From assembly GCA_035403145.1 (NCBI GenBank), contig DAONEO010000004.1, forward strand, positions 46,816 through 110,815: a stretch of 64,000 nucleotides of DNA. The letters are read 5' to 3'. The notes below the pieces were generated by a model, which had not been told where the DNA came from, did not search any database, and saw only the letters and a program-made list of their open reading frames with translations. This DNA is from Candidatus Omnitrophota bacterium. GTDB lineage: Bacteria; Omnitrophota; Gorgyraeia; Gygaellales; Profunditerraquicolaceae. The position numbers were made by a program, and so were the translations under genes. This document shows, piece by piece, positions 24,406 to 44,962 of the stretch (positions within the stretch are counted from its first letter, which is position 1; every line of letters starts with the position of its first letter).

Positions 24406-24433
24406 TTGACAGACCAGAAATAGGAATTATAAT
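24406..24433 (+). promoter_or_regulatory. Consensus sigma70-type promoter
   Basis: TTGACA at 24406-24411, a 16-nt spacer and TATAAT at 24428-24433 sit about 40 nt upstream of the first gene of the biosynthetic cluster. Confidence 0.5.
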
Positions 24434-24472
24434 ATTCAGACATAGTCAAATTTTACTATTTATGGTGAACAT

Positions 24473-24736
24473 ATGAATTGGAATCCCCAGACACTAGAAA
24501 AATTTAAAGTTATGATCTCTAAAATCCCGATTTTTCATCGAGCGATTACTCTGGAGGTTGTTACTAAAAAAGCAGAAGAGTTGGCAGTAGCGCGGCAAGC
24601 TTCGCAGGTGGAAGAAGTGGATATTATAAACGCATTTTTCTCCGATGTCCCCAGTCCTTTTTATAGCATGATGGTCCGCCTTTTGGAGCAGAACGGTTTT
24701 GATTATAAGAAATACGGATATCCGAAAACGCATTAG
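24473..24736 (+). CDS. Small protein with a PCP-reductase-type domain (the domain found at the C-terminus of protochlorophyllide reductase BchB, PF08369-like)
   Basis: MNWNPQTLEKFKVMISKIPIFHRAITLEVVTKKAEELAVARQ fits the W..EA...L..IP.F.R.....E..A pattern of that domain. Confidence 0.4.
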   Translation: MNWNPQTLEKFKVMISKIPIFHRAITLEVVTKKAEELAVARQASQVEEVDIINAFFSDVPSPFYSMMVRLLEQNGFDYKKYGYPKTH

Positions 24737-24739
24737 AGT

Positions 24740-25756
24740 ATGAAGATTGCTGTTATCGGTGCGGGTGCTATCGGCGGGCTTGTCGCCGGTTATCTGAAGC
24801 AAAAAGGCAATGACGTTGCGTTAGTTGCTCATGCGGATTCGGTTGCTGCTATCCGGCGCGACGGGTTACATATTGCAGGTGTTCGTCATGAAGTTTCTGT
24901 GCGGATTGATGTTACTGACCACCTTGCATGTTCGCCTGATTTGACAATTCTTGCCACCAAATCTCAGGATTTGGATGATTGTATGCGTTACCATGCGCCT
25001 TGTATGAAAACAGGGCTTGTTTTGACTACGCAGAACGGCGTTCGAGCCGATGAAATTGTTGCTCAGTATATCCCTCGCCTGAATATTGTCTCAAGTATCG
25101 TAATGTTTGGCGCAACACGGCTCAAGCCAGGCAGGATTATGCATAATTTTGAAGGGGACTGGATCATCGGTAAACCCTTTAGTCCGAATGATGCAACGGT
25201 CGCAACGATTGCCGGAGTGCTTGATCAGGCATTCCCAACTGTTGTCAGCGATACTATTTCCGGGATGAAGTACCTTAAATTATTCGTGAACGCCAATAAT
25301 TGTATTCCCGGGATACTCGGTGTCAGTATGCAGGAGGCATTTGCCGACGAGAAAGTATGCGCGATCAGCATTGCTCTCTGGAAAGAAGGATTGGCGGTTG
25401 TTAATACCGCAGGGATTAAGCTTGCGTCGCTCCCCGATTTCCCTTTGGAGCGTTTGATGAAATTGACTGCGATGCCGCTTCGTGAAGCCGCCAAGATCTT
25501 TTCTGGTATTATGGTGAATTTGAGTAAAGCGCCGTTGTATGGCTCCATCTTGCAGAGTATTAAACGCGGCAAGCAGTCAGAGATAGATTTTATAAACGGG
25601 GAATTTGTCCTTTTGGCGCGGACGTTCAAGACGGTCGCTCCATTGCATGAGAAAGTGGTTGTGATGGTGCATGAAGTTGAACGTACGAATAAATTTTTTA
25701 GCAAAGACGAGTTATTGAGATCAGTAAACCAGTTTGTTCCTGAAGGAGTGCTGTAA
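24740..25756 (+). CDS. Ketopantoate reductase (ApbA/PanE) family NAD(P)-dependent oxidoreductase
   Basis: MKIAVIGAGAIGGLVAGYL is a Rossmann motif. The length and the C-terminal helical domain fit ApbA/PanE. Confidence 0.6.
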   Translation: MKIAVIGAGAIGGLVAGYLKQKGNDVALVAHADSVAAIRRDGLHIAGVRHEVSVRIDVTDHLACSPDLTILATKSQDLDDCMRYHAPCMKTGLVLTTQNGVRADEIVAQYIPRLNIVSSIVMFGATRLKPGRIMHNFEGDWIIGKPFSPNDATVATIAGVLDQAFPTVVSDTISGMKYLKLFVNANNCIPGILGVSMQEAFADEKVCAISIALWKEGLAVVNTAGIKLASLPDFPLERLMKLTAMPLREAAKIFSGIMVNLSKAPLYGSILQSIKRGKQSEIDFINGEFVLLARTFKTVAPLHEKVVVMVHEVERTNKFFSKDELLRSVNQFVPEGVL

Positions 25757-25758
25757 GT

Positions 25759-26352
25759 ATGGTAGATACGCCGTTTCCAAAGTTGAAATTAACCGTTACC
25801 GGAGTTGGAGGGGTGTGTTATCACGGGTATACGATCGGGGATGAAATTATCCTTGATGATTTTACTCATCCGCCGCAACATTTTTGCCTTGGTTTGGCAC
25901 ATGCGGCGTTCCCTAATCTCTACGCTCTCAGTTTTGGCGCACAATTTCCTTTTCGCGATAATCAGCGATCATTGTCGGTTACCTGCCCTGACGGCGGGAA
26001 GCTTGAATTCAAAGTCGAGATTCTCGATAAACAGGGCAATGTCGAAGTTGTTCCTAAAGATCCCAATTTCAAGGGACCCAATCCAAAAAAAATGGTTATT
26101 GAAGTTGTTAAAGCAAAAGGTAAATGTACGTTTGGGTATAAGATCGGTGATACATGGGAGACCACGGGATTAAAGTGTATCCCCGGTTTTTGCGGTGCGG
26201 CGTTTCATTGCGCGTTCCCAGCGTTGTTTGCGCTTAATTTCGGCGCGCGGTTCTTTTTTATGCAGGATCCGAATTCTATTGATACGGTTACCTGCCCTGA
26301 CGGCGGCAATATAGTATTCAAGGTTCGTAGAGTAGAAGAGAAAAAAGAATAG
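25759..26352 (+). CDS. Cys/His-rich protein made of two tandem homologous ~95-aa modules, function unknown
   Basis: Both modules share C..G[YF].IGD, C.G.A.H.AFP.L.AL.FGA.F.F.D and VTCPDGG...FKV. This is an internal duplication. Confidence 0.55.
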   Translation: MVDTPFPKLKLTVTGVGGVCYHGYTIGDEIILDDFTHPPQHFCLGLAHAAFPNLYALSFGAQFPFRDNQRSLSVTCPDGGKLEFKVEILDKQGNVEVVPKDPNFKGPNPKKMVIEVVKAKGKCTFGYKIGDTWETTGLKCIPGFCGAAFHCAFPALFALNFGARFFFMQDPNSIDTVTCPDGGNIVFKVRRVEEKKE

Positions 26353-26493: not shown

Positions 26494-27756
26494 ATGTTTA
26501 AAAAGAGAAGAGTTGTCGTTACCGGTATTGGCGTTATTTCGCCGAATGGTATTGGGAAAGAAAACGTGTGGAAGTCGATGTCAAACGGTGTTTCCGGCAT
26601 TCGCCGGGTCGATCAATTTGACGTCTCCGTTTTTAATACGAAGATCGCGGCGCAAGTGCTTGATTTTGATCCGTTCAAATTCGGCCTGACGCATGACGAA
26701 GTTATGCGCATGGACCGGTATGTGCAATTCGGCGTCGTAGCCGGTACGATGGCTGTCCAGGACAGCAAAATAGATTTTTCAACGCTTGACCGTAACCGGG
26801 TCGGTGTTTGTTTAGCAAATGCGATCTGCGGGACTAAATATATGGAAGAAGAATTCGCCTTGGTTACCGACGGCGGGAAAAACCCGATTGACCCGGCTCA
26901 GGGCAGACCCGATCTCTATGATGCCGCAATGTTCAATACCCCTTCGATCGAGTTGTCCGCAAAATACAAATTAAACGGTGTTTGTACGACCATCTCAACG
27001 GGATGCACTGCCGGAACAGACGCGATCGGATATGCATTGGAGTCAATCCAAGATGGCGAGCATGATGTGATTATTGCCGGAGCCGCGGAAGCGCCGCTGA
27101 CCCCGATCACGTTTGGTGCATTTGACGTGGTGAATGTTTTGTCTGCTCATAATGATGAACCGCAAAAAGCTTCGCGTCCGTTTGATAATAAACGCGATGG
27201 ATTTGTCCTTTCCGAGGGGGCGGGCGTTTTGATCCTTGAGGAACTGGGACATGCTTTGAAACGCAACGCGCATATTTACGCGGAAGTACTTGGTTTTGGT
27301 ACAAGCTGTAACGCGTTTCACATGACGGATCTACCGGCAGATGGCGGCGCTATGGCCCGTTGTATTAAACTTGCGCTTGACGACGCCTCCATGAAACCCG
27401 CGGAGATCGAGTATATCAGCGCGCATGGTTCATCAACACGTATGAATGATATTTTTGAAACAGCCGCCTATAAAATGGTCTTTGGAGAGCATGCCTATAC
27501 GATTCCTATCAGTTCGTTGAAATCAATGATCGGGCATCCTTTGGCGGCGTCCAATGCTGTGGAGTTAACGGTTTGCATGATGATTTTTCAGAATAATCTC
27601 TTGCCTCCGACGATAAATCAGGAAGAAAAAGATCCTTTGTGCGATCTCGATTATATTCCGAATGTCGCCCGCAGCAAGAAAGTCAATACGATTATTAAAA
27701 CGAGCAGCGGTTTTTCGGGGATTCATTCGTCATTAATTATGAGGCGGTACTCATGA
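26494..27756 (+). CDS. Beta-ketoacyl synthase, KS-alpha (FabF/type II PKS KS)
   Basis: The active-site Cys lies in TISTGCTAGTDAIGYA, and the two His lie in YISAHGSST and KSMIGHPLAAS. Confidence 0.85.
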   Translation: MFKKRRVVVTGIGVISPNGIGKENVWKSMSNGVSGIRRVDQFDVSVFNTKIAAQVLDFDPFKFGLTHDEVMRMDRYVQFGVVAGTMAVQDSKIDFSTLDRNRVGVCLANAICGTKYMEEEFALVTDGGKNPIDPAQGRPDLYDAAMFNTPSIELSAKYKLNGVCTTISTGCTAGTDAIGYALESIQDGEHDVIIAGAAEAPLTPITFGAFDVVNVLSAHNDEPQKASRPFDNKRDGFVLSEGAGVLILEELGHALKRNAHIYAEVLGFGTSCNAFHMTDLPADGGAMARCIKLALDDASMKPAEIEYISAHGSSTRMNDIFETAAYKMVFGEHAYTIPISSLKSMIGHPLAASNAVELTVCMMIFQNNLLPPTINQEEKDPLCDLDYIPNVARSKKVNTIIKTSSGFSGIHSSLIMRRYS

Positions 27757-27965
27757 ACCCCGCATCTTCAATATGTTCCACAAGGTACCATGGTTACTTG
27801 TTGCAGGGCCAGCGCAAGGGTATTTCTTTTGAAGATGCCCCAAAATATGAGGAATCCCTTCAATCAAGTGGTAAGGCATATAGTCTTTTAAAGAAAAGAA
27901 TTCATACAAGTTTTGACCAATTACCGTCTTCACCTATGAATACTTTGGAGGTGCAGGGTGGATAA
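27753..27965 (+). CDS. Small 70-aa ORF translationally coupled between the KS-alpha and KS-beta genes, hypothetical
   Basis: Its ATG overlaps the KS-alpha TGA as ATGA, and its stop overlaps the KS-beta GTG start by 8 nt. No motif was recognised. Confidence 0.35.
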   Translation: MNPASSICSTRYHGYLLQGQRKGISFEDAPKYEESLQSSGKAYSLLKKRIHTSFDQLPSSPMNTLEVQGG

Positions 27966-29184
27966 GATAGCAATTACCGGATTTGGGATTGTGGCGCCAA
28001 GCGGCATCGGGCGCAGGCAGTTCTGGGCTAACATTAAAGCAGGCAGGTCGTTTGTCAAGAAAGTCACTCGCTTTGATTCTTCCAAATATCAGACGCAGAT
28101 TGCAGGGCAGATCGATGACCTGGAGAAATATTCCACGTTCTCTGAGCGGCTGTTAAAAAAGATCGATACGTTCTCCCACATGGCCCTGATCGGATCAGAA
28201 ATGGCGATGCAGGATGCCGGTATCGCTATCAAAGAAGAAGATCTTAATCGTGTGGGTATTTTTATGGGTAATGCTATCGGCGGATGGCTTTACGCAGAAA
28301 CCGAATTGCGCGATCTATATCTTGAAGGGCGGGAAGGGGTTTCTCCGTATATGGCATCGGCATGGTTCCCCGCTGCTCCGCAAGGACAAGTTTCTATCTA
28401 TTATGGTATTAAGGGTTTTTCAAAAACCGTTGTTTCCGATCGCGCCAGTTCTCTTGATGCTATCGGGTATGCGCGTAAGACGCTGCTTAAAGATAAACTG
28501 AACATGATTTTAGCAGGGGGTACCGAAGCACCTGTTTCTCCCTATGGTTTTTTATGCTGCAATACCTATGGTTGCCTTTCGACGAACAACGCGGATCCCC
28601 GCGGTGCATATCGGCCGTTTGACAAAAAACGCTCTGGTTTTGTAGTTGGCGAGGGCGCAGGGATCATGGTTATGGAGCCTGTGGCGCGCGCTCAGGCTCG
28701 TGGTAAGACGCCGATCGGGTTTATTTCCGGTTATGGCACAACCTGCGACGGAGTCTCCCGGCTGGATCCTGATCCGTCTGGCGATCAATTGTGCAGGGCT
28801 ATTACCATTGCCTTAGAAGACGCGGGACTTTCTGCGCGTGATATTGATTATGTTTCTTTGGACGGTTTAGCGGTTGATATCTGGGATACAAGTGAAGTTG
28901 CGGGGCTGAAGAAAGCTTTGGGGAAACATCTTGAAAAGATCCCGGTGAGCTGCCCAAAATCAATGTTTGGGAATTTACTTGGTGCTTCAAGCGCGGTTGA
29001 CGTGATCATCACGTTGTTGGCAATGGAAAATAATTTAATTCCCCCGACTATTAATTTAGAGGTTCCTGATCCGAACGGCTTGAATTATGTCATAGGAGAG
29101 GCCCAGGAATTTACTGTAAACAAGGCATTAGTTATTGCCCGCGGCAGAGGCGGGATTAATTCTGTATTGGTGATAGAAAAATAA
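27958..29184 (+). CDS. KS-beta / chain-length-factor-like ketosynthase paralog lacking the catalytic triad
   Basis: The protein has KS thiolase fold homology throughout. The Cys position reads TVVSDRASSLDAIGYA, so Cys is replaced by Arg. The His positions read VSLDGLAV, with His replaced by Asp, and KSMFGNLLGASSA, with His replaced by Asn. A GTG start follows a GGAGGTG RBS. Confidence 0.75.
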   Translation: MDKIAITGFGIVAPSGIGRRQFWANIKAGRSFVKKVTRFDSSKYQTQIAGQIDDLEKYSTFSERLLKKIDTFSHMALIGSEMAMQDAGIAIKEEDLNRVGIFMGNAIGGWLYAETELRDLYLEGREGVSPYMASAWFPAAPQGQVSIYYGIKGFSKTVVSDRASSLDAIGYARKTLLKDKLNMILAGGTEAPVSPYGFLCCNTYGCLSTNNADPRGAYRPFDKKRSGFVVGEGAGIMVMEPVARAQARGKTPIGFISGYGTTCDGVSRLDPDPSGDQLCRAITIALEDAGLSARDIDYVSLDGLAVDIWDTSEVAGLKKALGKHLEKIPVSCPKSMFGNLLGASSAVDVIITLLAMENNLIPPTINLEVPDPNGLNYVIGEAQEFTVNKALVIARGRGGINSVLVIEK

Positions 29185-29257: not shown

Positions 29258-30718
29258 ATGAAGATCTTATTTGTAATGCCTAAAGTCGGTGCCTGGGCAA
29301 CACACGGAAAACATCTCGGACCGAACCAGCTTTACGCGCATTGGGCAGCATATGTCCGCGAAAAAGGATATGCGGATGTTGAAGTCCTTGATTGTAAGGC
29401 CCTTGATATAGAGATGGACCAGATGGTTGAAACGGTTAAATCAAAAAAGCCCGATGTCATTGTTATGGGTGAGCAGTTACATTCATACGGCGGCTACGCA
29501 GTTGTCGCGCATTTTAACGATACGGCTAAACGCATTAAAGCGGCATATCCGGCGGGAACGATTGTTTTCGGCGGTCTCTGGTATTCTGCTATGCCGACCG
29601 AGACCCTTGCGGCAAACCCTGCGGTTGACTACGTGGTTATGGGCGAAGAAGAATCTTTTTACGATCTGATCAATGCCATTGATACAAAGAAGAACATGAA
29701 AGATGTCGCTGGGGTTACCAGCCGCATCGGCAGCGAGATTGTTATGGGACCGTACAAGCCTCTTTTAATGGATCTGGATTCTCTTCCGCTTCCGGCATAC
29801 GACCTTTTTCCGATGGATAAATACGTAGGGCATACGTTCTGGAAGCCGTTTGTAGAGTTGGTTACCAGCAGAGGTTGTCCTTCGGCATGTACGTTCTGTT
29901 ATGAATGGGATCAGTATGATCCCCGCAATCCCGGTGATTTCTTGAAATGGCGGTCGAAGAGCCCGGAACGCGTTATTGAAGAGTTGAACCTTTTGCATAA
30001 AAAATACGGTGTTAAAGTGGTGGTTTTGCAGGATGATAATTTTAACGTTAATCCCGCGCGCGTCAAGAAGTTTTGCGAATTGAAAAAAGCCAGCAATAAT
30101 CCGATCAAGTGGGTTTCGCTCGGACGTGCGGTGGACTGGATCAATTGCGAATCGATCCTGCCGCTTATGAAAGAAACGGGATTATTTACCGGTGTTTTCG
30201 GGATTGAAGTTACGACCCCCGAAGAGCTGAAGAAGATCGCTAAGGGTATTACCGTTGAGCAGATCATGAAGACGGTCGAAATTTTGCGTAAAAACAATAT
30301 CGCCGTTGTCGCCGATATCATGATGGGGTTTGATTATGACGATGAAGCGGTTATCAAACAGCGTTATGAATTCACCGATATGGTTGATCCGGATATTCTC
30401 TGGATCGGGTATGTTACGCCGGCACCCAACTCACCGATGTGGAAGATGGGGTTGAAGAAAAAATGGATCGATCCGACAAAGATCGATTTCGCGCGCTGGG
30501 ATTTCCTGCATCCGGTTATGCCGACAGACCACTTAACCATCGAAGACCTGGGCCGCCTGGGTTCTTGGTGTATGCGTGAATTCTTCTCAAAACCAGGCCG
30601 TATCAACCGTATTATGGAGACAGATTTCGATATATTGGCAAAACTTTGTTTCCAGGATGTTATGGCTGGTGTCGGCAAGTGGGAGGCAGGCGCCACAAAA
30701 GGCGAAGTTCATATTTGA
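29258..30718 (+). CDS. Cobalamin-binding (class B) radical SAM enzyme
   Basis: The N-terminal B12-binding domain reads MKILFVMPK...DVIVMGEQLHSYG. The radical SAM cluster motif is VTSRGCPSACTFCYE, a CxxxCxxC. Confidence 0.75.
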   Translation: MKILFVMPKVGAWATHGKHLGPNQLYAHWAAYVREKGYADVEVLDCKALDIEMDQMVETVKSKKPDVIVMGEQLHSYGGYAVVAHFNDTAKRIKAAYPAGTIVFGGLWYSAMPTETLAANPAVDYVVMGEEESFYDLINAIDTKKNMKDVAGVTSRIGSEIVMGPYKPLLMDLDSLPLPAYDLFPMDKYVGHTFWKPFVELVTSRGCPSACTFCYEWDQYDPRNPGDFLKWRSKSPERVIEELNLLHKKYGVKVVVLQDDNFNVNPARVKKFCELKKASNNPIKWVSLGRAVDWINCESILPLMKETGLFTGVFGIEVTTPEELKKIAKGITVEQIMKTVEILRKNNIAVVADIMMGFDYDDEAVIKQRYEFTDMVDPDILWIGYVTPAPNSPMWKMGLKKKWIDPTKIDFARWDFLHPVMPTDHLTIEDLGRLGSWCMREFFSKPGRINRIMETDFDILAKLCFQDVMAGVGKWEAGATKGEVHI

Positions 30719-30812: not shown

Positions 30813-31049
30813 ATGGATGTTAAAGCAGTTGCCAGAAATACGCTGGTTCAGCTTTTGAAAATCAAACCGGAAGAATTGAAAGATGATGTGCAGCTGACGA
30901 ACGGCATTGGCGTAGACTCGACAGAGATGGTGGAATATTGTATTGCGCTTGAAAAAGCGTTTAATACAAAAATAAGCCCCAAAGAGATTACCAAATACTC
31001 CACGATCAATGAGATCGAGCAAATTGTAAAGGCAAAGCTGAACTTTTAG
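30813..31049 (+). CDS. Acyl carrier protein
   Basis: The 78-aa protein carries LTNGIGVDSTEMVEY with the phosphopantetheine Ser in DS. A GAAGGAGG RBS lies 5 nt upstream of ATG 30813; the ORF-track frame opens at 30576. Confidence 0.8.
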   Translation: MDVKAVARNTLVQLLKIKPEELKDDVQLTNGIGVDSTEMVEYCIALEKAFNTKISPKEITKYSTINEIEQIVKAKLNF

Positions 31050-31059
31050 AAGGGGGATC

Positions 31060-31860
31060 TTGATGAAGATCGTTGATTTAAGTCTTCCTATTGATGAGCG
31101 GGCACCCGAAGTGCATCCGATGTGGATTGATCGCCTGGGGCATAAAGAAGGCGTTCGTCATATTAACTGGGTGATGATGAAACATACCCTGAAAGGGAAA
31201 ATCGAATTCTTTTTGGGGAAGCGCATTATTGAGCCGTCACATTTGCCGGATGGGGAATTCCTCTCACTTGAAACCGTGCATTGCCCGGTGCATATCGGCA
31301 CGCATATTGATTTCTCATTCCATTACGGGACGCAGTCGCAAGGCCGCCCTTCAAAACCGATCATTGAACTTCCGCTTGAATGGTGTTACGCGGATGCGGT
31401 TGTTTTGAATTTTACGCACAAGAAACCGGGAGAAGTCATCTCCAAAGATGACGTTGTGCAGGCATTAGTTAAAGTCAAGTATGCTATAAAACCCAACGAC
31501 ATTGTTTTATTACATACCGGCGCCGATCAATATTTCGGGACGCGGGAATATCTGACGAATTATCCCGGAGTTTCGCCGGAGGCTATCGCCTATATTCTTG
31601 ATCATAACGTTCATATCATCGGAGTTGACTCGCTTGGTTTTGACCGGCCGTATAAATACATGATGGCTGATTTCCATAAAACCAAAGATGGCTCGGTTCT
31701 CTGGCCGGCGCATTTTTACGGCCGCAAACAGGAGTATGCGCATATCGAACGATTGACGAATTTAGGAAAATTACCGGCGCATGGCTTTAAAATCCAGTGT
31801 TTCCCGATCAAGATCCTTGATTGCGGAGCTGCCTGGTCGCGCGTCGTTGCGTTTGTGTGA
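31060..31860 (+). CDS. Putative cyclase family protein (PF04199, kynurenine formamidase-like fold)
   Basis: HCPVHIGTHIDFSFH is the HxGTHxD metal-binding motif typical of this family. A GAAGGGGG RBS precedes the start. Confidence 0.65.
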   Translation: MMKIVDLSLPIDERAPEVHPMWIDRLGHKEGVRHINWVMMKHTLKGKIEFFLGKRIIEPSHLPDGEFLSLETVHCPVHIGTHIDFSFHYGTQSQGRPSKPIIELPLEWCYADAVVLNFTHKKPGEVISKDDVVQALVKVKYAIKPNDIVLLHTGADQYFGTREYLTNYPGVSPEAIAYILDHNVHIIGVDSLGFDRPYKYMMADFHKTKDGSVLWPAHFYGRKQEYAHIERLTNLGKLPAHGFKIQCFPIKILDCGAAWSRVVAFV

Positions 31861-37628: not shown

Positions 37629-38378
37629 ATGCAAATGCAAAAAGATGTTCATATGACCGGAAAAGATTTGACAGCGATGGTGCAGCTGAGGCCGCAGGAT
37701 GTGGGTTCGTACGCGATCGTCCCCGGGCCGCGCGACAGACTGGATGTTCTCATGAAAAAGATCGAGAATCCGGTGCGTAATTTCTCTTTCATGGAATATA
37801 CGATGTATACCGGCACCTTCGAGGGAATCAAAGTGACGGGTATTAACGGCGGCCGGTTTTCGACGGATACTTCAATTACCTCGGAAGTTATGTGTAATGC
37901 CGGGATCAAGAATATCATCCGCATCGGTTCGTGCGGATCTCTTGATGAGAATATCCAAATCGGCGATTTGTTTATTGTAGATTCGGTTATCCGCGGTGAT
38001 GGAGTGACCCCGTATTACGTGAAACCGGATTTCAAAACTGTGGCCGATAAGAAAATATCGGATACCATGTTTGGCATAGCGCACGACATGGGATTAAAGG
38101 TGCACCGCGGTGTTGCCTGGACAACAGACGCTTTATTGCGTGAAACCCGGGAGATTGTCGAGGCAAAACGTACAGAAGGAGCCCAGGTTGTTGATATGGT
38201 TTCTTCAACGCTTTTAACGATTGCACAGACATATCATGTTAAAGCCGGCTCAATCCTGGCGGTGAGTGATAATGTTGTTACCGGTGAAATGGGATTTATG
38301 AATCCCCTGTATTACATGGCCGAGACGAATTTGATAAAAATAGCGCTTGAGACGGTTAAGAAACTGGAAGGCAAATAA
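37629..38378 (+). CDS. Purine/uridine nucleoside phosphorylase family (PNP_UDP_1) enzyme, candidate 5'-deoxyadenosine/MTA phosphorylase
   Basis: VPGPRDRLDVL and RIGSCGSL are motifs of the PNP/UDP/MTAP fold. An AAGGAGA RBS lies 8 nt before ATG 37629; the ORF opens at 37581. Confidence 0.6.
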   Translation: MQMQKDVHMTGKDLTAMVQLRPQDVGSYAIVPGPRDRLDVLMKKIENPVRNFSFMEYTMYTGTFEGIKVTGINGGRFSTDTSITSEVMCNAGIKNIIRIGSCGSLDENIQIGDLFIVDSVIRGDGVTPYYVKPDFKTVADKKISDTMFGIAHDMGLKVHRGVAWTTDALLRETREIVEAKRTEGAQVVDMVSSTLLTIAQTYHVKAGSILAVSDNVVTGEMGFMNPLYYMAETNLIKIALETVKKLEGK

Positions 38379-38477: not shown

Positions 38478-39416
38478 ATGAAGTATTCCCCATTATTTTG
38501 GCCCATTGAATATAAAGACGGCGTTATCCGCATTCTTGACGAGACACTGCTGCCGCATACCGTGCAGTATATTGAAGCGCGGACGTATCAGGATTGTTGT
38601 AACGCCATCAAGGAGATGAAAACGCGCGCCGTGGGGCAGGTGATCCTGGTTTTTTATACCTTTCTGATGGTGTTGGAACAGAATGCGAGTAAAAAGGATT
38701 TGTCCGGGATCATTGCGCACGTTGCCGAAGCAATGAACGCGACTCGGCCGACGCTTTCTTTCAAATACCTGACGGATATGATTCTTGGATGGCACAAAAA
38801 AGGAGCGCCGCTTGAGCAGAGCATTGAAGGATTCCTTGAGATGCTCAAGGCAAAACGTATTCAACAAGCCGAGGATGCCAGTAATCTCTTAAGTGACAAA
38901 GATGTTGTTTTAACACATTGCAATATGAGCGGTCTTATGCCTTTGATCGCGGAGTTTGCCGAAGAGCATGGCAAGGCGATAAGTTTCTTTGTCACGGAAA
39001 CACGTCCGTATCTGCAAGGCTCGCGTTTGACTGCCTGGGAATTACATGAGGCGGGGTACCCGGTGACAATTATTGCCGATAATATGGTGGCAGCGGTGAT
39101 GGCTGAGGGAAAGATTTCGAAAGTTATCGTTGGTGCTGACCACTTAACGCAGAATGGCGATATTGCAAATAAAATCGGCACCTATCAAATTGCGCTCTTA
39201 GCAAAGCATTTCCACATACCTTTTTATGTTATTTGTCCGCCGCCATCGTCATTAAAAACCGGCAAGGATATCCATATCGAGATCCGCCCGGATACAGAGT
39301 TACTCGAATATCAGGGGATTTGTCTTGCTCCTAAAGGGTGCAAAGGGTATTATCCTGCGTTTGATGTGACGCCGAATGATTTAATTACCAAGCATATTTA
39401 TCTGGAGGTGCGTTAG
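38478..39416 (+). CDS. mtnA: eIF-2B alpha/beta/delta-related sugar-phosphate isomerase (MtnA-like 5-(methylthio/deoxy)ribose-1-phosphate isomerase)
   Basis: GADHLTQNGDIANKIGTYQIALLAKHFHIPFYVICP is the conserved MtnA/e2b2 C-terminal motif. Confidence 0.7.
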   Translation: MKYSPLFWPIEYKDGVIRILDETLLPHTVQYIEARTYQDCCNAIKEMKTRAVGQVILVFYTFLMVLEQNASKKDLSGIIAHVAEAMNATRPTLSFKYLTDMILGWHKKGAPLEQSIEGFLEMLKAKRIQQAEDASNLLSDKDVVLTHCNMSGLMPLIAEFAEEHGKAISFFVTETRPYLQGSRLTAWELHEAGYPVTIIADNMVAAVMAEGKISKVIVGADHLTQNGDIANKIGTYQIALLAKHFHIPFYVICPPPSSLKTGKDIHIEIRPDTELLEYQGICLAPKGCKGYYPAFDVTPNDLITKHIYLEVR

Positions 39417-40418
39417 ATGTATGACCATCAGAGGAAGATGAAAGAAGAGATCATAAAGATCGGCCGGCGCCTCTATGCGCAAGGCTTAGCAGTGGCTAAA
39501 TCGGGGAATTTAAGCTGTCGTTTAGATGCCGAACATATTTTAATCACCGCGACAGGTACCCGTTTAGGTGAATTGGATTATGACGATATTGTAAAAGTGA
39601 ATGTTTCTTCCGGAGAATCGGCTGACGGGAAGAAACCGAGTTCTGAATTGCCGTTACATGGTCTGATTTATAAGAATTTTCCTGCCAAAGCGGTGATTCA
39701 TGCGCATCCGCCGTTGACCAACGGCTATTTTGCAGTACGGGATACGCTGGAGGCGCTGACTTTTGAAACGAAATTTTATATAGGTAATGTGCCGTGCGTT
39801 ACGCAAGAGACCCCGACGGTTACCAAGCCAGACCAGGTGATCGATGCTTTGAAAGCGAATAAGCTGGTGGTGTTGAAGAACCATGGTATTGTTGCCATGG
39901 CGGATAAATTCGACGATGCTTTGGAGTTAGTGGAAGCGCTGGAAGAAGCGGTTAAGACCGCGGCGCTTGCGCATATTTTTTCGCAAGGCGCTTCTGCTGC
40001 CGCACAATCGCAGCGTATCGAGGGGGTATCTTCAACCGAGAGTGCATACGACATGTTCTCACGCGAGCATATTCAGGCGATTGTTGACCTGGTTAATAAA
40101 GATACGTTCATCGCACAAAAAGGCCAGGAGCTTGATCTGACGGTGCAGCTTGCTATAAAAATGGATGGCGCGCAAGACGCATTTAAATTCAATTTTGAAA
40201 AAGGCAGAATTATCCGGCTTGATTTCGATGATAACGCGCCGTTTGTGATTTCAGCGCCTGCTGCAACGTGGGAGCAGGTGTTTCATGGCAAGCTCGATTC
40301 ATTTGTCGCGGTAACGCAAGGGAAAATGAATTTGAAGGGCGAGCTCGGCAAGCTTTCCCGCTGGTATGTGCCCTTTACCAGGCTCTTTGAACTTTTTAAG
40401 CAGGTAAAGATTAAGTAA
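39417..40418 (+). CDS. Class II aldolase/adducin-family protein (MtnB / MTRu-1-P aldolase-like) fused to a C-terminal SCP2-like domain
   Basis: The N-terminal ~200 aa carry ...AKSGNLSCRLD... and VIHAHPP of the class II aldolase fold. The C-terminal ~120 aa end in ...AVTQGKMNLKGELGKLSRW, an SCP2 sterol-carrier signature. Confidence 0.6.
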   Translation: MYDHQRKMKEEIIKIGRRLYAQGLAVAKSGNLSCRLDAEHILITATGTRLGELDYDDIVKVNVSSGESADGKKPSSELPLHGLIYKNFPAKAVIHAHPPLTNGYFAVRDTLEALTFETKFYIGNVPCVTQETPTVTKPDQVIDALKANKLVVLKNHGIVAMADKFDDALELVEALEEAVKTAALAHIFSQGASAAAQSQRIEGVSSTESAYDMFSREHIQAIVDLVNKDTFIAQKGQELDLTVQLAIKMDGAQDAFKFNFEKGRIIRLDFDDNAPFVISAPAATWEQVFHGKLDSFVAVTQGKMNLKGELGKLSRWYVPFTRLFELFKQVKIK

Positions 40419-40440
40419 TAGATGCGGGTTCCACGGTCAC

Positions 40441-40475: not shown

Positions 40476-40505
40476 TGCAACCCTGCCAATGTTCAGGATC
40501 TCATT

Positions 40506-41990
40506 ATGAGTATTTATTCGCCTTACATTAACGGCCAATTTAAAGAAACCAGCCAGAAGCGCGATGTGATTGATCCATCGACGGGCGAAGTTTTTGCGCA
40601 GGCGGGGCTTGCTTCACGCGAAGATGTTGAAGAGGCGCTTATTGCGGCGCGTCTTGCTTTTGATTACGGCGAATGGCCGCGCCTGCCGCTTTCCGAGAGA
40701 AAAATATATATCCAGAAAATTTGTGATGGTATCCTTGCAAAGGCGGGAGAGCTAGCGGCGCTTGAAACCCGGAATACAGGTAAGCCGATCAAGGAATCGA
40801 CCTTCATGGATATTCCCTCTGCCGCAAGGACCTTTCGGCACTTTGCCGATCATCTGGAAGAATATGTAAAGCCGGAGATTCTCAATGTGGAAAATGCGCA
40901 GTCGACACTCCTGCGTGAGCCTCGTGGTGTTGTCGTGCTTATCGTCCCCTGGAATTATCCGCTTCTTATCGCCTCATGGAAACTTGCTTCTGCTTTGGCA
41001 GCAGGTAATACGGTTATTCTCAAACCTTCCAGCCTAACACCCCTCACCGTATTGGAATTGGCAAAGATACTTCATGCGGCAGGTTTGCCCAAAGGCGTCG
41101 TTAATATTGTAAATGCCGACGGATCGTTGATGAGCGAGACGCTTTGTAAAGATAGTCGCGTTGATATGATTTCTTTTACCGGCAGCAATGAAGTCGGGAA
41201 AAAGATCATTGAAAATTCGGCAGCTTCTGCAAAAAAGCTTATTTTGGAGCTTGGCGGAAAATCAGCTTCAATTGTTTGTAAAGATGCGGATCTGGAACTA
41301 GCGGTCAATGGCGCGCTTTGTTCGGCATTTTTGAATGGCGGGCAGATGTGTACGCAGATGTCGCGCATTTTTGTTGATGAAAGTATTTATGATGATTTCG
41401 TCGGCGAATTTGTTGCAAAGGCCAAGAGAATAAAGGTGGGGCCGGGGGCTGATTATGAAACGCAGATCGGTCCGCTTGTTTCTCGAGCGCAACAGGAGCG
41501 CTGCAAAGATTTTGTTGATAAAGCAAAGCAGGAAGGTGCGCGGGTTTTGTGCGGCGGAGGAATTCCCCGTCATAATGGTTTTTATTTTGAGCCGACGGTT
41601 TTAGCTGGGGTCACGAATAAAATGGGGATCTTTCATGAAGAAGTTTTTGGGCCTGTTGTTTGTATCGGTACATTTTCTTCTGTTGATGATGCGGTTATGC
41701 AGGTAAATGATAGCGATTTTGGGCTTGCGGCGGCTCTTTGGTCGCTCGATACGAAGAACGCACCTGCAATTGCCAGCCGGCTTAATGTCGGCACCGTATG
41801 GATTAATACCTATGGCATGTTTTATCCGGAATTGCCCTATGGCGGATGCAAGCAGAGCGGTTTTGGAAAAGAGCTGGGGAGGGAAGGATTTTTAGAATAC
41901 ACGAGGTTAAAGAATATCTTTCTTGACCGCACGCAGGGCGCTAAGCCGCTGGTCAATTATTGGTATGGTTTATCGCACGGAGGTGTTTAA
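40506..41990 (+). CDS. NAD(P)-dependent aldehyde dehydrogenase
   Basis: ELGGKSASIV is the Glu-active-site region, and FLNGGQMCTQMSRIFV contains the catalytic Cys. Confidence 0.85.
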   Translation: MSIYSPYINGQFKETSQKRDVIDPSTGEVFAQAGLASREDVEEALIAARLAFDYGEWPRLPLSERKIYIQKICDGILAKAGELAALETRNTGKPIKESTFMDIPSAARTFRHFADHLEEYVKPEILNVENAQSTLLREPRGVVVLIVPWNYPLLIASWKLASALAAGNTVILKPSSLTPLTVLELAKILHAAGLPKGVVNIVNADGSLMSETLCKDSRVDMISFTGSNEVGKKIIENSAASAKKLILELGGKSASIVCKDADLELAVNGALCSAFLNGGQMCTQMSRIFVDESIYDDFVGEFVAKAKRIKVGPGADYETQIGPLVSRAQQERCKDFVDKAKQEGARVLCGGGIPRHNGFYFEPTVLAGVTNKMGIFHEEVFGPVVCIGTFSSVDDAVMQVNDSDFGLAAALWSLDTKNAPAIASRLNVGTVWINTYGMFYPELPYGGCKQSGFGKELGREGFLEYTRLKNIFLDRTQGAKPLVNYWYGLSHGGV

Positions 41991-43498
41991 TGGACGTTAT
42001 TAAACTTTTGCAGAAACGCGCGGAAGAGTTTCCTTCAAAACCGGCTGTGATTGCCCGGGGGAATCCTGTTACATTTTCCCAATTGAGGGATACTGTTTTC
42101 AAACTTGCCGATAGCTTGGAAAAACTCGGAGTTAAAAAAGGCGATGCGGTCGCAATTTATCTTCCCGGTTGCCCGGAATATATGTATAGCTATTTGGCGG
42201 TCTGGTGCCTGGGCGCGGTTGCCGTCCCCCTTGATTATATGTTAACCGGCGATGAGCTTATTTCCTGTTTGGGCCATTCCGAAGCAGTACTCTTGATCGC
42301 CCGGCCAAAGCCGATCGTATCATTTGATACGATTAAAAGTCAAAGCCCCGCGCTTAAAGATATCGTTGTTTGCCAGGCGCACGAATCATCGCTGCCGTTG
42401 TTTGAATCGCTTCTGGAACATGGCACGCCGGCACTACGTGTGTCATCTGTATCGGAACGGGACCGCGCGATCATTTTCTATACGTCCGGCACAACAGGGA
42501 AACCCAAGGGGGTTATCATTAATTATCGGCAGTTGGGAGCGCCTCCTGAATCAATGGGTTTTTTTGTGGGTGATCTTTCAAGCCAGGATGTGGCGTTGTG
42601 CGCGTTGCCGTTTTCGCATCTCGGCGGGCTTATCTATATCCTTAATTGTATTGCTTTCGGGATGACGTTTGTTTTGATGGAGCGTTTTGTCCCGGCGGAG
42701 TTTTTGAAAAATATTCAGCAATATAAAGTAACCTGTTTCTGGATTGTTCCCTCAATGTACTATGCGTTTTTACAGCTGAAGGAATTTGAAAGTATTGGTT
42801 TGTCGAGTTTGCGGTGGATGGTTACTTTTGGTGCTTCCAATTCTCCTGATGCGTTGCGCCGCTTCCAGCAGTATTGCCCGAAGGCGCATTTATTGAACGG
42901 CTGGGGTTTAACTGAGACAAACGCGCCGACGACGGTTATCCCCCGCGGTTCAAACAAGATCGAGAGTGTTGGCAGGCCCGCGCCCTGGATTGATGTTAAG
43001 ATTTTTGACGATGCCGATAAACCGCTTCCGGCAGGCAGTGTCGGAGAGGTGGTGGTAAAAAGCTGGGTCGTTACCCAAGGATATTTTAAGGATCCGGAAC
43101 TTACCGCCGAGACGATTAAAAACGGCTGGTTCCACACCGGTGATTTGGGAAGATTGGATGCCGAAGGGCTCTTATATATTGTCGGCCGGAAAAAAGAGAT
43201 GATTAAGGTTTCGGGTGAAATTGTTTTCGAGCCGGAAGTTGAGGCTGCAATCCATAAACATCCGGCAATCGCGGAAGTCGCAGTCATCGGTGTGCCGGAT
43301 ACCCTGCGGGGAGAGATCCCGAAAGCGTTTATTGTTGTGAAACCTCAGGAAAATACGGACGGTGAAGACCTGCGGCAGTTCTGCCGGCAACACTTGGCGC
43401 ATTTTAAAGTTCCTCACTATTTTGAATTTGTCACAGAACTCCCTAAAAACCGCACCGGTAAGATCGATAAAGAACTGTTGCGGCGGAAAGGGCTCTAG
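41990..43498 (+). CDS. AMP-dependent synthetase/ligase (acyl- or aryl-CoA ligase)
   Basis: IFYTSGTTGKPKGV is the AMP-binding motif I. YGLTET and ...GWFHTGDLG follow. A GGAGGTG RBS precedes the start, and the ATG overlaps the ALDH stop as TAATG. The ORF opens at 41960. Confidence 0.85.
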   Translation: MDVIKLLQKRAEEFPSKPAVIARGNPVTFSQLRDTVFKLADSLEKLGVKKGDAVAIYLPGCPEYMYSYLAVWCLGAVAVPLDYMLTGDELISCLGHSEAVLLIARPKPIVSFDTIKSQSPALKDIVVCQAHESSLPLFESLLEHGTPALRVSSVSERDRAIIFYTSGTTGKPKGVIINYRQLGAPPESMGFFVGDLSSQDVALCALPFSHLGGLIYILNCIAFGMTFVLMERFVPAEFLKNIQQYKVTCFWIVPSMYYAFLQLKEFESIGLSSLRWMVTFGASNSPDALRRFQQYCPKAHLLNGWGLTETNAPTTVIPRGSNKIESVGRPAPWIDVKIFDDADKPLPAGSVGEVVVKSWVVTQGYFKDPELTAETIKNGWFHTGDLGRLDAEGLLYIVGRKKEMIKVSGEIVFEPEVEAAIHKHPAIAEVAVIGVPDTLRGEIPKAFIVVKPQENTDGEDLRQFCRQHLAHFKVPHYFEFVTELPKNRTGKIDKELLRRKGL

Positions 43499-43642
43499 AG
43501 TTCTGATACAAGAAGAGAATTGGTCGTAACGTCATAAAGTCATACCAACACAAGCAACTATGAACATCTGCTATTTGTGCTTCTTTGTGGCGTATGACGG
43601 TGTGACTTTACCTCGTGCACCATCGTGAGGGTATAATAAGAA

Positions 43643-44962
43643 TTGCGAAGTCACGTGAAAGAAGGCAGAGTTAAACAGAGCTTGCGGGTTTCTTTCTGGG
43701 ACGGAGTTTTTTACGCCTGCATGACCGGGCTTGTTTCTGATTATTTGACTCCGTATGCGCTTGCCTTGAAGGCGACTCCCGGCGATATCGGCATTCTTGC
43801 TGCGGCTCCCAGTTTAGTCGCAACGCTGACTCAATCCAAAGCCCCTGATTTGACCGAGCGTTTCAAAAGTCGCACGACCACGATAAATCTCTTTGTGTTC
43901 ATGCAGGCGCTGATGCTGATACCGATCATGGCTATTCCGTATTTGTTCAAAGCAAATCCCGTTATTGCCCTCATTATTTTTGCGACACTCTTTACCGCGT
44001 TCGGCGGTTTGGCGAATCCCCCCTGGGCGGGGTTAATGGCGGAGTATATCCCGGCGCGGAAACGGGGAGCATATTTTGGCTGGCGCAATAAAATTACCGG
44101 TATTGTTACCGTCGCGGCGTCGTTTGTTTCCGGATTTATTTTGTTCCGTTTGACGCATAATATCTTCGTTGCTTTTCTGACAATTCTCATCTTGGCTTTC
44201 ATCTGTCGTCTTATTTCATGGGGGTTCCTTACGCGGATGTACGAGCCTCGTTTTGCGCCGGCGCGGGAAGATTATTTCAGTATTTGGGATTTTATTAAGC
44301 GTATGCGTCAAACAAATTTCGGCAAGTTTGTTTTTTTTGCCGCCAGTTTTAATTTTTGTGTGCAGATTGCCGCTCCGTTCTTTCCCGTTTTCATGCTCAA
44401 GGATTTGCAGTTTAATTATTTGACCTATACCCTTTTAACGATCACCGTGACAGCGGCCCAGATAATTGCCATTGACCGCTGGGGGATGCTTGCCGACAGA
44501 ACCGGTAACATCAAAGTTCTCAAGGTTTGTTCCCTGCTTATTGCTTTTAACCCGCTCTTTTGGATCATCAATCGGCATCCGGCATATCTTATTTTTGCCC
44601 AGATTGCCGCCGGATTTTCGTGGGCGGGGTTTAATATCTGCGCAACTAATTTCATTTATGATGCGGTAACCCCGCAAAAGCGGGTGCGGTGCATCGCTTA
44701 TTTCAACGTATTGGTCGGGTTAGGAATATTCCTGGGCGCTTTGTGCGGCGGACTGCTTGCTACGCGTATGCCGATCCTCTTTGGATACCGCCTGCTTTCG
44801 CTTTTTTTGCTTGCCAGTATTATGCGTTTTGCCGTTATTGCGATTATGGCGCCCCGGATACACGAGGTTCGGCGTGCAGCGGAACCGATGAGGAAACGGG
44901 ATTTATTTTACAGCGTTATCGGCATCAAGCCGTTAACCGAAGGACAGAGCCTTAAAGAATAA
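43643..44962 (+). CDS. MFS transporter (second)
   Basis: Twelve TM helices are predicted. It has a TTG or GTG start, with GAGGGT upstream. Confidence 0.6.
   Translation: MRSHVKEGRVKQSLRVSFWDGVFYACMTGLVSDYLTPYALALKATPGDIGILAAAPSLVATLTQSKAPDLTERFKSRTTTINLFVFMQALMLIPIMAIPYLFKANPVIALIIFATLFTAFGGLANPPWAGLMAEYIPARKRGAYFGWRNKITGIVTVAASFVSGFILFRLTHNIFVAFLTILILAFICRLISWGFLTRMYEPRFAPAREDYFSIWDFIKRMRQTNFGKFVFFAASFNFCVQIAAPFFPVFMLKDLQFNYLTYTLLTITVTAAQIIAIDRWGMLADRTGNIKVLKVCSLLIAFNPLFWIINRHPAYLIFAQIAAGFSWAGFNICATNFIYDAVTPQKRVRCIAYFNVLVGLGIFLGALCGGLLATRMPILFGYRLLSLFLLASIMRFAVIAIMAPRIHEVRRAAEPMRKRDLFYSVIGIKPLTEGQSLKE

Follow-up and report, generated by a model that had tools for sequence, protein, structure and literature searches.

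Introduction

Nearly all that is known of type II polyketide synthase (PKS) chemistry comes from aerobic actinomycetes, in which oxidation of the ring needs O2. Here we describe a gene cluster in a 64,000-nucleotide stretch (hereafter, the window) of contig DAONEO010000004.1 from Candidatus Omnitrophota assembly GCA_035403145.1, which we read, with moderate confidence, as an oxygen-independent aromatic (type II) polyketide pathway held as a stable chromosomal locus in Omnitrophota and a few Desulfobacterota. Its ketosynthase (KS) is placed beside AntD of the Photorhabdus luminescens antA-I cluster, the type II PKS for the anthraquinone AQ-256 (AntD/AntE/AntF, AntC, AntH, AntG). Few type II PKSs function in E. 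coli, and AntD-type pairs of KS and chain length factor (CLF) belong to those that do; AntG, the AMP-ligase of an AntD-type cluster, is the proposed loader of the acyl carrier protein (ACP) (PMC6638757).

KS-CLF pairs have been catalogued in 14 phyla, Candidatus Omnitrophica among them, including a large non-actinobacterial clade with partners resembling fatty-acid synthase (FAS) enzymes (PMC10132072); the supplementary files of that study that we searched name neither Omnitrophica nor the accessions that we tried. Metagenome-assembled genomes (MAGs) of Omnitrophota have also received antiSMASH 'ladderane' calls, given without analysis (PMC9902471). Neither study describes function, and full-text literature searches returned no description of the cluster. 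An initial annotation of the window had called its combination of genes undescribed; this holds for function, and the phylum itself was already listed for KS-CLF pairs (PMC10132072). Just one radical S-adenosylmethionine (SAM) enzyme paired with a type II PKS turned up in our searches, a HemN-like methylase of another class than the enzyme reported here (PMC9714029). The MtnP variant of the dihydroxyacetone phosphate (DHAP) shunt consists of a phosphorylase, the isomerase MtnA and a class II aldolase (PMC10986504), and we found no description of a biosynthetic cluster with recycling or use of a by-product built in. As a type II PKS the locus is conventional. What is new is its conservation across hundreds of species genomes, the Arg-containing CLF-like partner, a BchE-like radical SAM enzyme within a minimal PKS, and a co-inherited second DHAP-shunt set whose aldolase is fused to an SCP2 domain.

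Results

Placement of the ketosynthase, its partner and the cyclases

Domain calls are from Pfam and NCBIfam searches of the translated open reading frames (ORFs; Table 1). Relatives were collected by a scan with the radical SAM alignment over one genome per GTDB species, which returned 283 encoding stretches. The related loci referred to below are the best 80 of these (76-87% identity) with 10 kb flanks, a sample in which the genes for the aldehyde dehydrogenase (ALDH), the AMP-ligase and the second major facilitator superfamily (MFS) transporter are under-represented.

Compared with solved structures, the KS scores 388.5 bits with actinorhodin (act) KS-alpha and 381.9 with AntD, against 338 with the best FabF; matches to the ishigamide polyene KS (6KXD, 236.5 bits) and to 7F27 (225.8 bits) are weaker. 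It has a segment in common with act KS-alpha and AntD over which FabF aligns only with gaps. In a neighbour-joining tree of 50 sequences and 411 columns (200 bootstraps; AntE and the act CLF not included), AntD and the KS proteins of the window, of 'Candidatus Anaerobenzenivorax' ORM2a and of the most divergent locus make up one clade (100% bootstrap), whose next neighbour, at 80%, is act KS-alpha; FabF-type sequences lie outside this grouping. The sequence comparisons thus assign the enzyme to the aromatic type II KS-alpha proteins rather than to FabF/FabB. A FabF, or fatty-acid, identity had first been suggested by NCBIfam, which ranks both KS proteins of the cluster top on FabF models (the KS at 449 bits on PRK07314, above the cut-off), and was ruled out by the solved-structure scores and the tree; because these favour KS-alpha, we take the higher NCBIfam scores to reflect model coverage and not placement.

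The gene directly downstream encodes a KS-like protein with which the KS is predicted to form a heterodimer. The initial annotation had called it a KS-beta/CLF without a catalytic triad. That it is catalytically dead is well indicated by the residues at its active-site positions, where the Cys gives way to an Asp-Arg pair found in 72 of 75 related loci; it is not a canonical CLF, as its family profile lies nearer FabF and the priming Gln is missing, with Asp-Arg in place of the (Glu)-Gln motif of the act CLF. The protein falls in a monophyletic clade of dead KSs (94% bootstrap), many of which carry Asp-Arg and some of which are fused to an STGC-type KS. The library search behind this clade was dominated by multi-KS type I PKS giants and left about 40 usable single-domain representatives. 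AntE does not occur in the solved-structure matches listed for the protein or for its family profile. Identity to its 120 best relatives is 72-100%, those with names being almost all Candidatus Omnitrophica/Omnitrophota MAG proteins, and an identical copy occurs on ENA contig ERZ795026 NODE_39 and on six other contigs. The KS and its partner match the category 'type II KS plus FAS-like' of an earlier survey (PMC10132072).

Four polypeptides of 818-869 aa (P0242, P0249, P0261 and P0266) combine an active KS with a C-terminal half that is KS-like and whose active-site Cys is replaced in three of the four; they are natural KS-CLF fusions. In the window, the 200-nt spacer between the KS and CLF-like genes, typically 5-15 nt in relatives, holds a 70-aa ORF (27753-27965). 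This ORF is among the gene calls of the source contig and occurs in 0 of 55 related loci; probably it was inserted recently or is spurious.

The x-D-S-x attachment motif of the ACP was found in 77 loci. The SRPBCC protein has seven solved-structure matches, all of them TcmN/WhiE/Zhu-type aromatase/cyclases (ARO/CYCs; 5.1e-25 to 5e-24). Its W-x-S-x-R motif, equivalent to W65/S67/R69 of TcmN, is kept in 68 of 68 related copies. The PF04199 protein has distant solved-structure matches only, to isatin hydrolase. The reading of the locus as an aromatic type II PKS core in a non-actinobacterial genome had been offered together with two results that would speak against it, grouping of the KS with FabF and an SRPBCC protein lacking likeness to PKS cyclases. 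The KS grouped with AntD and act KS-alpha, the SRPBCC matches were ARO/CYCs without exception, the host is a member of the Omnitrophota, and the reading stands.

A predicted B12 radical SAM enzyme between the partner and carrier-protein genes

The radical SAM gene had been reported as class B and as lying between the CLF-like and ACP genes, and both statements agree with our searches. The protein has PF02310 and PF04055 domains and a CxxxCxxC core (C207-x3-C211-x2-C214) that is invariant and found in 80 of 80 loci; by domain and motif it is a class B (cobalamin) enzyme, predicted to bind B12. Its best curated model is BchE (198.2 bits, 2.5e-58, profile positions 2-416 of 497; cut-off 481), followed by HpnJ (135 bits, 3.8e-39) and by methylases (HpnR, PhpK and TokK-like) at 103 bits or less and 1e-29 or weaker. 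On rSAM_ladder_B12 (TIGR04072) it scores 79 bits against a cut-off of 360. It reaches no NCBIfam equivalog cut-off, and its best solved-structure match, AprD4, gives only 55.8 bits. As judged from these scores the enzyme is most similar to BchE, yet it is no BchE ortholog. Identity across 120 protein clusters is 73-87%, and relatives with names are again almost all from Omnitrophota.

Conservation and linkage of the cluster

A comparison of gene order in related genomes, proposed at the outset, showed that about 18 genes recur together in 80 of 80 loci wherever contigs are long enough, an arrangement far beyond chance. Median identities of the core enzymes (72-82%) match or surpass the values for the neighbouring accA (69-77%). 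The cluster, whose radical SAM gene is carried by about 283 species-level genomes, is a vertically conserved locus, not a sporadic secondary-metabolite island. Gene order within it has been shuffled. In locus L017 a ligase-phosphorylase-isomerase-aldolase-ALDH block lies upstream of the PKS block and not downstream of it; the ligase gene is upstream in L012 and L014, and the ligase and phosphorylase genes are upstream in L063. The radical SAM gene comes after the gene for the short-chain dehydrogenase/reductase (SDR), rather than after the CLF-like gene, in L063 and L081. Because linkage outlasts this shuffling, we argue that the shunt and PKS genes are functionally connected.

Transposase-like genes of the IS200/Y1 type lie between the ACP and cyclase genes in five related loci (for example L017, 11779-12477; also in gaps in L014), and a similar gene is found near the window end (62313-62963); this element family moves inside the cluster without breaking it up. 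One MAG (binchicken_co115_127) has the full cluster on two contigs (L052 and L054) with equal per-gene identities to the window, which reflects either a real duplication or a duplicate that arose in assembly or binning.

Three loci (L016, L021 and L022) form a subgroup labelled Desulfobacterota. Among them, L022 is the closed 3.3 Mb chromosome CP113000.1 of the benzene degrader ORM2a, for which published locus tags (OS130_08810 AMP-binding, 08830 MtnA-like, 08850 SDR, 08870 ACP, 08880 KS family and 08895 ApbA-like) agree in order with the genes that we find (PMC13101534). The ApbA-like OS130_08895 is one of three such paralogs. Elsewhere the genome holds a FabD/FabG/ACP/FabF set (OS130_03500-03515), together with a canonical MtnP (OS130_11380) and, in addition, a second MtnA (OS130_11480) (PMC13101534); the KS pair is therefore not the cell's fatty-acid synthase, and the shunt enzymes of the cluster are additional, dedicated paralogs. 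Identity of the cluster with the highly expressed 'Magic' benzene-activation cluster of ORM2a was ruled out, as its own locus tags lie elsewhere and lack proteome spectra; the text of the 'Magic' cluster paper names neither radical SAM, ketoacyl, polyketide nor cyclase.

A metagenome scan with the nearest outgroup CLF (P0244, 48% identity) returned two loci, among them L083, a truncated 5.7 kb peat-metagenome contig. This sister cluster encodes a CLF (46% identity), an ACP, a PF04199 cyclase (46%), an ARO/CYC (50%), an FMN reductase, an Amidohydro_2 protein (39%) and an FAD-dependent, amine-oxidase-like enzyme, and in this one truncated locus there is no radical SAM gene between the CLF and ACP genes. 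Flavoenzymes in the tailoring slot where the radical SAM enzyme is missing fit a swap between O2-dependent and anaerobic tailoring. As a lead only, from the single truncated L083, the PKS-cyclase-decarboxylase core may be older than the radical SAM addition.

The shunt-like genes

The initial annotation had proposed a built-in module for salvage of 5'-deoxyadenosine (5'-dAdo), and at family level the phosphorylase, isomerase and aldolase do fit an MtnP-type DHAP shunt, an assignment supported by their domains and motifs. The isomerase lies narrowly below equivalog cut-offs (TIGR00512, 239 against 279 bits; NF004326, 252 against 271). Solved-structure matches of the aldolase include 6VOP, 2IRP and 6BTD, and it reaches no equivalog cut-off. 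Motifs read from the sequences are HCN and GAD...NGD..NKIGT in the isomerase and SSE, HAH and NHG in the aldolase, with catalytic roles assigned from the MtnA and FucA literature. The phosphorylase, which weakly matches HpnG and futalosine-nucleosidase models, ranks near the top of the cluster's proteins in conservation. The ALDH gene comes after the aldolase gene in both locus arrangements, and the ligase gene belongs to the cluster at either of its ends. A zinc-dependent alcohol dehydrogenase (Zn-ADH), an enzyme also found with known DHAP shunts, is encoded with the shunt genes in eight loci, and in 11 loci (for example L033, 15156-15980) the cluster has a DeoC/LacD-family class I aldolase at its downstream edge. 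By eye this aldolase is like the FbaB-type enzymes and the synthase of 2-amino-3,7-dideoxy-D-threo-hept-6-ulosonic acid (ADH). It is conceivable that salvage of 5-deoxy sugars is linked to the 6-deoxy-5-ketofructose 1-phosphate (DKFP) route to aromatics.

Layout, accessory genes and flanks

As had been described, the cluster is a packed, same-strand block that begins at a consensus promoter: every plausible gene between 24473 and 44962 lies on the + strand, with short or overlapping intergenic gaps, and a perfect sigma-70 site precedes the first gene (Table 1). A terminator-like hairpin (24311-24335) that ends uvrD lies directly 5' of the promoter-like site. GC content is flat across the locus (44-48%), the flanking genes are housekeeping genes (purH, a Mur-ligase-type gene, mnmE, accA, uvrD, rlmN and leuS), and domain searches of the flanks found no mobility genes at the cluster borders.

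Table 1. Genes and sites of the cluster, with accA and padR, in the window. Positions count from the first nucleotide of the window; median identity is to the window protein, over related loci.
Feature	Position	Strand	Basis	Median identity
accA, acetyl-CoA carboxylase carboxyltransferase alpha	15357..16331	+	Pfam ACCA 500.9 bits	
PadR-family regulator	16328..16846	+	Pfam PadR 49.4 bits	
Sigma-70 consensus promoter-like site	24406..24433	+	TTGACA-16 nt-TATAAT, 12/12 matches	
Small 87-aa DUF2621/PCP_red-like protein, first ORF	24473..24736	+	DUF2621 27.1 bits, E=4.8e-6, cut-off 27.7	66% (54 loci)
ApbA/PanE-like NAD(P)H oxidoreductase (ketopantoate-reductase family)	24740..25756	+	Pfam ApbA and ApbA_C; TIGR00745 163.9 bits, cut-off 141	57%
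Tandem-duplicated TIGR04076 protein, conserved Cys/His	25759..26352	+	two repeats, 93.7 bits	80%
KS-alpha, predicted active ketosynthase	26494..27756	+	Cys171-His311-His348 triad, STGC motif	77%
CLF-like, predicted inactive KS partner	27958..29184	+	Arg/Asp/Asn at Cys/His/His positions	72%
B12-binding-domain radical SAM enzyme	29258..30718	+	PF02310 47.4 bits (cut-off 32.1), PF04055 80.4 bits	79%
Acyl carrier protein	30813..31049	+	PP-binding domain, ACP models, DS motif	62%
PF04199 'putative cyclase', metal-dependent hydrolase/cyclase fold	31063..31860	+	102.1 bits	58%
Cupin_2 protein, TcmJ-like by context	31860..32177	+	Cupin_2 43 bits	
TcmN-type mono-domain ARO/CYC (SRPBCC; PF10604/PF03364)	32271..32711	+	solved-structure matches	78%
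MFS transporter, probable exporter	32808..33929	+	MFS_1 132.9 bits; in 42/63 loci	
SDR	33947..34723	+	adh_short 174.6 bits; source-contig gene call starts 33899	82% (64 loci)
Secreted CBM_11-like beta-sandwich protein, accessory	34821..35429	+	CBM_11 76 bits; signal peptide read by eye; in 32/60 loci	
Conserved 133-aa protein	35448..35849	+	no family match; 52/60 loci, 43-53% identity; translationally coupled to decarboxylase gene	
Amidohydro_2, ACMSD/LigW/gamma-resorcylate-decarboxylase-like	35849..36763	+	family assignment	65%
Secreted 242-aa protein	36765..37493	+	no family match; in 0/47 related loci	
PNP_UDP_1 nucleoside phosphorylase, hexameric Udp/DeoD-like	37629..38378	+	proposed 5'-deoxyadenosine phosphorylase	81% (51 loci)
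MtnA-like sugar-1-phosphate isomerase	38478..39416	+	IF-2B 191.7 bits; TIGR00524 202 bits (cut-off 186)	66%
Class II aldolase with C-terminal SCP2 domain	39417..40418	+	Aldolase_II 131.4 bits; SCP2 22.2 bits (cut-off 21.3)	60%
NAD(P)-dependent ALDH	40506..41990	+	Aldedh 545 bits	61%
AMP-dependent acyl-CoA/acyl-ACP ligase, FadD-like	41987..43498	+	AMP-binding 283 bits; PRK06187 439 bits	
Second MFS transporter	43643..44962	+	MFS_1 99 bits	

Nearly all domain assignments of the initial annotation were reproduced, among them those of the ACP, the PF04199 cyclase, the ApbA-type reductase, the tandem Cys-rich protein (here two TIGR04076 repeats), the Amidohydro_2 protein, the ALDH and the AMP-ligase, and the SDR gene and the SCP2 domain of the aldolase are additions to its gene list. 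The PCP-reductase domain claimed for the first ORF fell away: PF08369 PCP_red matches at E=0.077 (13.5 bits), and DUF2621 is the better match, just under its cut-off. The TcmJ-like cupin does have a Cupin_2 domain and is an accessory gene, not a core one, occurring in just 18 of 68 related loci. Of the secreted proteins, the CBM_11-like one recurs and the 242-aa one does not; the latter is lineage-specific and probably outside the conserved pathway. Both transporters belong to MFS_1, and it is uncertain that the second is a cluster member. In locus L071 rlmN comes straight after the ligase gene with no MFS gene between, and here rlmN follows the second MFS gene. A phosphopantetheinyl transferase (PPTase) or malonyl transferase (MAT) had been reported missing, and none was found in the block or in 80 related loci. 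Domain searches of the block and of related loci likewise found no FabZ/dehydratase (DH) or enoyl reductase in the cluster.

The TIGR04076 tandem protein has best relatives that are 75-88% identical, almost all of the named ones from Omnitrophota. The Amidohydro_2 protein groups with ACMSD, LigW and the gamma-resorcylate and 2,3-dihydroxybenzoate decarboxylases; it is a probable non-oxidative aromatic-acid decarboxylase, a placement that fits loss of an aromatic carboxylate. In six related loci (including L004, 15394-15813, and L053, 17634-18050) a crcB fluoride channel gene and a DUF190 gene lie between the decarboxylase and phosphorylase genes.

No cluster-specific regulator had been seen in the cluster; a PadR gene is conserved upstream of the cluster in at least 17 relatives and in the window is displaced to a site beyond uvrD. 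PadR homologs (49-65% identity) lie 100-500 bp 5' of the cluster start in 17-18 related loci, and accA-padR (accA identity 69-77%) is directly upstream of the first cluster gene in at least 15. These two genes are ancestral upstream neighbours of the cluster. In the window they are parted from it by a block of about 7.5 kb (16900-24307: DUF7544, a 242-aa ORF, PilZ, small ORFs, a peptidyl-prolyl isomerase, YajQ and UvrD), which looks like a lineage-specific insertion or rearrangement because accA-padR abuts the cluster directly in many relatives.

Several neighbouring genes touch on other subjects. A small P-II-like protein (PF00543, 28 bits) is encoded just 5' of the cluster in 12 related loci (for example L027, 4803-5168). 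Further upstream in the window, a radical SAM/SPASM gene (9577-10641) runs into the beginning of a gene for a class I SAM methyltransferase (10538-11734), with a 130-aa ORF (9014-9406) just upstream; genes 9577-11734 may be a small peptide-maturation or cofactor cassette, separate from the PKS cluster. Downstream, 3' of rlmN and a gene for a GDSL lipase, lies a row of three sensor kinase genes (47043-56564), whose products are 981 aa (dCache and PAS domains), 374 aa (a hybrid of response regulator and kinase) and 1667 aa long (several PAS and GAF domains).

Discussion

The scheme that we favour is that of an anaerobic aromatic polyketide pathway, in which we infer the chemical steps, the product and the direction of flux from the gene content, motifs, placement and linkage seen in the sequences. 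The AntD-like KS-alpha, its dead, Arg-containing partner and the dedicated ACP would build a poly-beta-keto chain from malonyl units. Extender units and ACP activation would come from the housekeeping acetyl-CoA carboxylase, FabD and PPTase, and the accA product encoded upstream would supply malonyl-CoA. The TcmN-type ARO/CYC and the PF04199 cyclase would fold and aromatise the chain, the ACMSD/LigW-type enzyme would take off a ring carboxylate, and the SDR and ApbA-like reductase would adjust keto groups. The BchE-like enzyme would carry out an O2-independent oxidation, cyclisation or C-methylation, possibly helped by the TIGR04076 and DUF2621-like proteins, consuming SAM stoichiometrically and releasing 5'-dAdo. 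This inhibitory by-product could then be handled by the paralogous DHAP-shunt set, in which phosphorylase, MtnA-like isomerase and class II aldolase would yield adenine, DHAP and acetaldehyde; the ALDH would oxidise the aldehyde, and the AMP-ligase would either re-activate the acid, returning the C2 fragment, or load the ACP in the manner proposed for AntG. An MFS pump would export the product, and the PadR regulator would control the locus.

Several observations weigh against this scheme. The phosphorylase scores 112 and 90 bits on Udp and DeoD models against 25.8 on MTAP, and the ligase is FadD-like, not like an acetyl-CoA synthetase (Acs). The aldolase-SCP2 fusion occurs in 43 of 43 untruncated loci, including copies only 33-40% identical; a 5-deoxyribulose-1-phosphate aldolase should need no SCP2 (lipid-binding) domain, and the conservation of the fusion hints at a role beyond disposal. 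A module of five dedicated genes is hard to explain by one by-product per turnover, unless either the flux or the SAM stoichiometry is high. On the PKS side, the family profile of the CLF-like partner scores 445 bits with FabF, 379 with act CLF and 340 with act KS, and a partner that lacks the Gln may be unable to prime from malonyl-ACP. The trees are neighbour-joining only, with about 50 sequences and neither AntE nor the act CLF among them. For those ORM2a cluster proteins that the published tables list, no proteome spectra are recorded (PMC13101534).

Some of these points suit an alternative, in our judgement unlikely, by which the 'salvage' genes are a biosynthetic line. The radical SAM enzyme would adenosylate a hydrophobic intermediate, in the manner of HpnH and MqnE; the phosphorylase would remove adenine like HpnG and MqnB, the isomerase and SCP2-aldolase would give DHAP and an aldehyde R-CH2-CHO, and the ALDH and ligase would convert this trimmed product to an acyl starter for the Gln-less KS/CLF pair. 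Such a route is favoured by the unbroken SCP2 fusion even in divergent copies, by the non-MTAP-like phosphorylase with its weak HpnG and futalosine-nucleosidase matches and 81% median identity, by the movement of the ALDH and FadD-like ligase genes with the triad as one block in both arrangements, by the status of the cluster copies as extra paralogs beside canonical MtnP and MtnA in ORM2a, and by a CLF-like partner without the priming Gln. It is hard to square with a best model, BchE, that frees 5'-dAdo, with known adenosylating enzymes (HpnH and MqnE) that are not known to have a B12 domain, with an SCP2 match of just 22.2 bits, and with Zn-ADH and DeoC-type aldolase neighbours in some loci that suit the handling of small aldehydes; trimming of an adenosylated intermediate by the MtnA/aldolase route has no known precedent. 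It is distinctly unlikely that the shunt block is a two-carbon homologation line, with the -CH2-CHO handle oxidised to give the starter for the Gln-less pair and the product perhaps a quinone-like redox molecule of strict anaerobes. That the locus belongs to primary metabolism, making the aromatic head group of a quinone-like cofactor or electron shuttle in strict anaerobes lacking both the classical and the futalosine route to menaquinone, seems quite improbable. The breadth of distribution (the radical SAM gene in about 283 species-level genomes, the full cluster in 80 loci), core identities at or above that of accA, and the housekeeping surroundings with uniform GC and borders free of mobility genes would all be natural for such a role. 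In ORM2a, KEGG menaquinone stands at 2/9 blocks (a MenA-type prenyltransferase and UbiE), a NapC/NirT-type cytochrome is present and no futalosine module is among the ORM2a rows listed, this last being weak evidence as it rests on those rows. No prenyltransferase lies in or beside the cluster in 80 loci, the MFS exporter and PadR regulator suggest a secreted phenolic product, and the cluster is apparently not phylum-wide and is undetected in ORM2a proteomes, all of which count the other way.

Two explanations remain. If the shunt genes were ordinary salvage of methylthioadenosine (MTA) or 5'-dAdo, merely adjoining the PKS genes, then the generic character of the triad at family level and the intact look of the isomerase and aldolase motifs would be expected; linkage kept through at least two independent rearrangements, the separate MtnP and MtnA elsewhere in the ORM2a genome, the atypical SCP2 fusion and the Udp-like phosphorylase would not, and we think it very improbable. 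A fatty-acid-derived lipid pathway, FabF-type, aryl-polyene-like or ladderane-like, is in our view barely credible. It could draw on the top ranking of both KS proteins on NCBIfam FabF models, on the CLF-like profile, on the 'ladderane' calls in Omnitrophota (PMC9902471) and on accA adjoining the cluster in relatives. These are set against a KS-alpha whose group is that of AntD and act KS-alpha and not of FabF, an ARO/CYC of TcmN type that keeps the catalytic motif, a cluster without FabZ/DH or enoyl reductase, a radical SAM enzyme far under the rSAM_ladder_B12 cut-off, and a separate, full FAS set in ORM2a.

On the aromatic polyketide reading, an AntD-type minimal PKS has become fixed in a phylum that is uncultured and largely anaerobic, with the radical SAM gene in hundreds of species-level genomes. 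A BchE-like radical SAM enzyme in the slot held by flavoenzymes in the sister cluster makes a concrete candidate for oxygen-free tailoring of aromatic polyketides. Since AntD-type pairs are active in E. coli, this clade is a realistic expression target, and the ORM2a enrichment culture, with its closed genome, is a living source of the cluster.

The radical SAM enzyme of the locus shares with BchE an N-terminal B12-binding domain and the CxxxCxxC core, and BchE is its best-scoring curated model; it scores below the equivalog cut-off and sits in a PKS cluster, not among (bacterio)chlorophyll genes. BchE is the anaerobic Mg-protoporphyrin IX monomethyl ester oxidative cyclase, which releases 5'-dAdo. 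HpnH/HpnG and MqnE/MqnB are the adenosylhopane and aminofutalosine pairs, and the coupling in the window of a radical SAM gene to a PNP_UDP_1-family gene whose enzyme would remove adenine is reminiscent of both. The window phosphorylase is like HpnG and MqnB at superfamily level only (HpnG 42 bits, cut-off 187), the window radical SAM enzyme differs from HpnH and MqnE in having a B12 domain and in resembling HpnJ and BchE, and neither pair has a counterpart of the downstream isomerase and aldolase. With the DHAP shunts (MtnP, MtnA, Ald2; the related DrdK/I/A) the locus has in common a triad, matched at family level, in one block with an aldehyde-handling enzyme adjoining. It departs from them in its Udp/DeoD-like phosphorylase, in an isomerase just below the MtnA cut-off, in the SCP2-fused aldolase, and in the addition of an ALDH and a FadD-like ligase, the whole co-inherited inside a PKS cluster.

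A ladderane-type lipid cluster would have a TIGR04072 enzyme with FabZ/FabF-type FAS genes; the window cluster has no enzyme at the TIGR04072 cut-off, no dehydratase and no enoyl reductase. Among polyketide systems, the tetracenomycin one (TcmK/L/M, TcmN, TcmJ) has features in common with the locus: the window has a mono-domain TcmN-type ARO/CYC (5e-25), a type expected for unreduced chains, and a small cupin gene after the cyclase gene. It lacks a TcmI-type cyclase and O2-dependent oxygenases, its ARO/CYC carries no O-methyltransferase domain, its cupin is kept in a minority of loci (18 of 68), and its KS-alpha is nearer AntD than actinorhodin KS-alpha. The antA-I (AQ-256) cluster of P. luminescens and the window cluster are both Gram-negative, non-actinobacterial minimal PKSs with sister KS-alpha proteins, a discrete ACP, an aromatase/cyclase-type and a second cyclase enzyme, and an AMP-ligase. 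The window cluster has no PPTase (AntB), no assignment of an AntA-type C9 ketoreductase and no AntI lyase, and its CLF carries Asp-Arg. It adds to the antA-I plan the B12 radical SAM enzyme, the TIGR04076 tandem protein, the ApbA-like reductase, the Amidohydro_2 decarboxylase and the DHAP-shunt-like block, in a host from a lineage of strict anaerobes.

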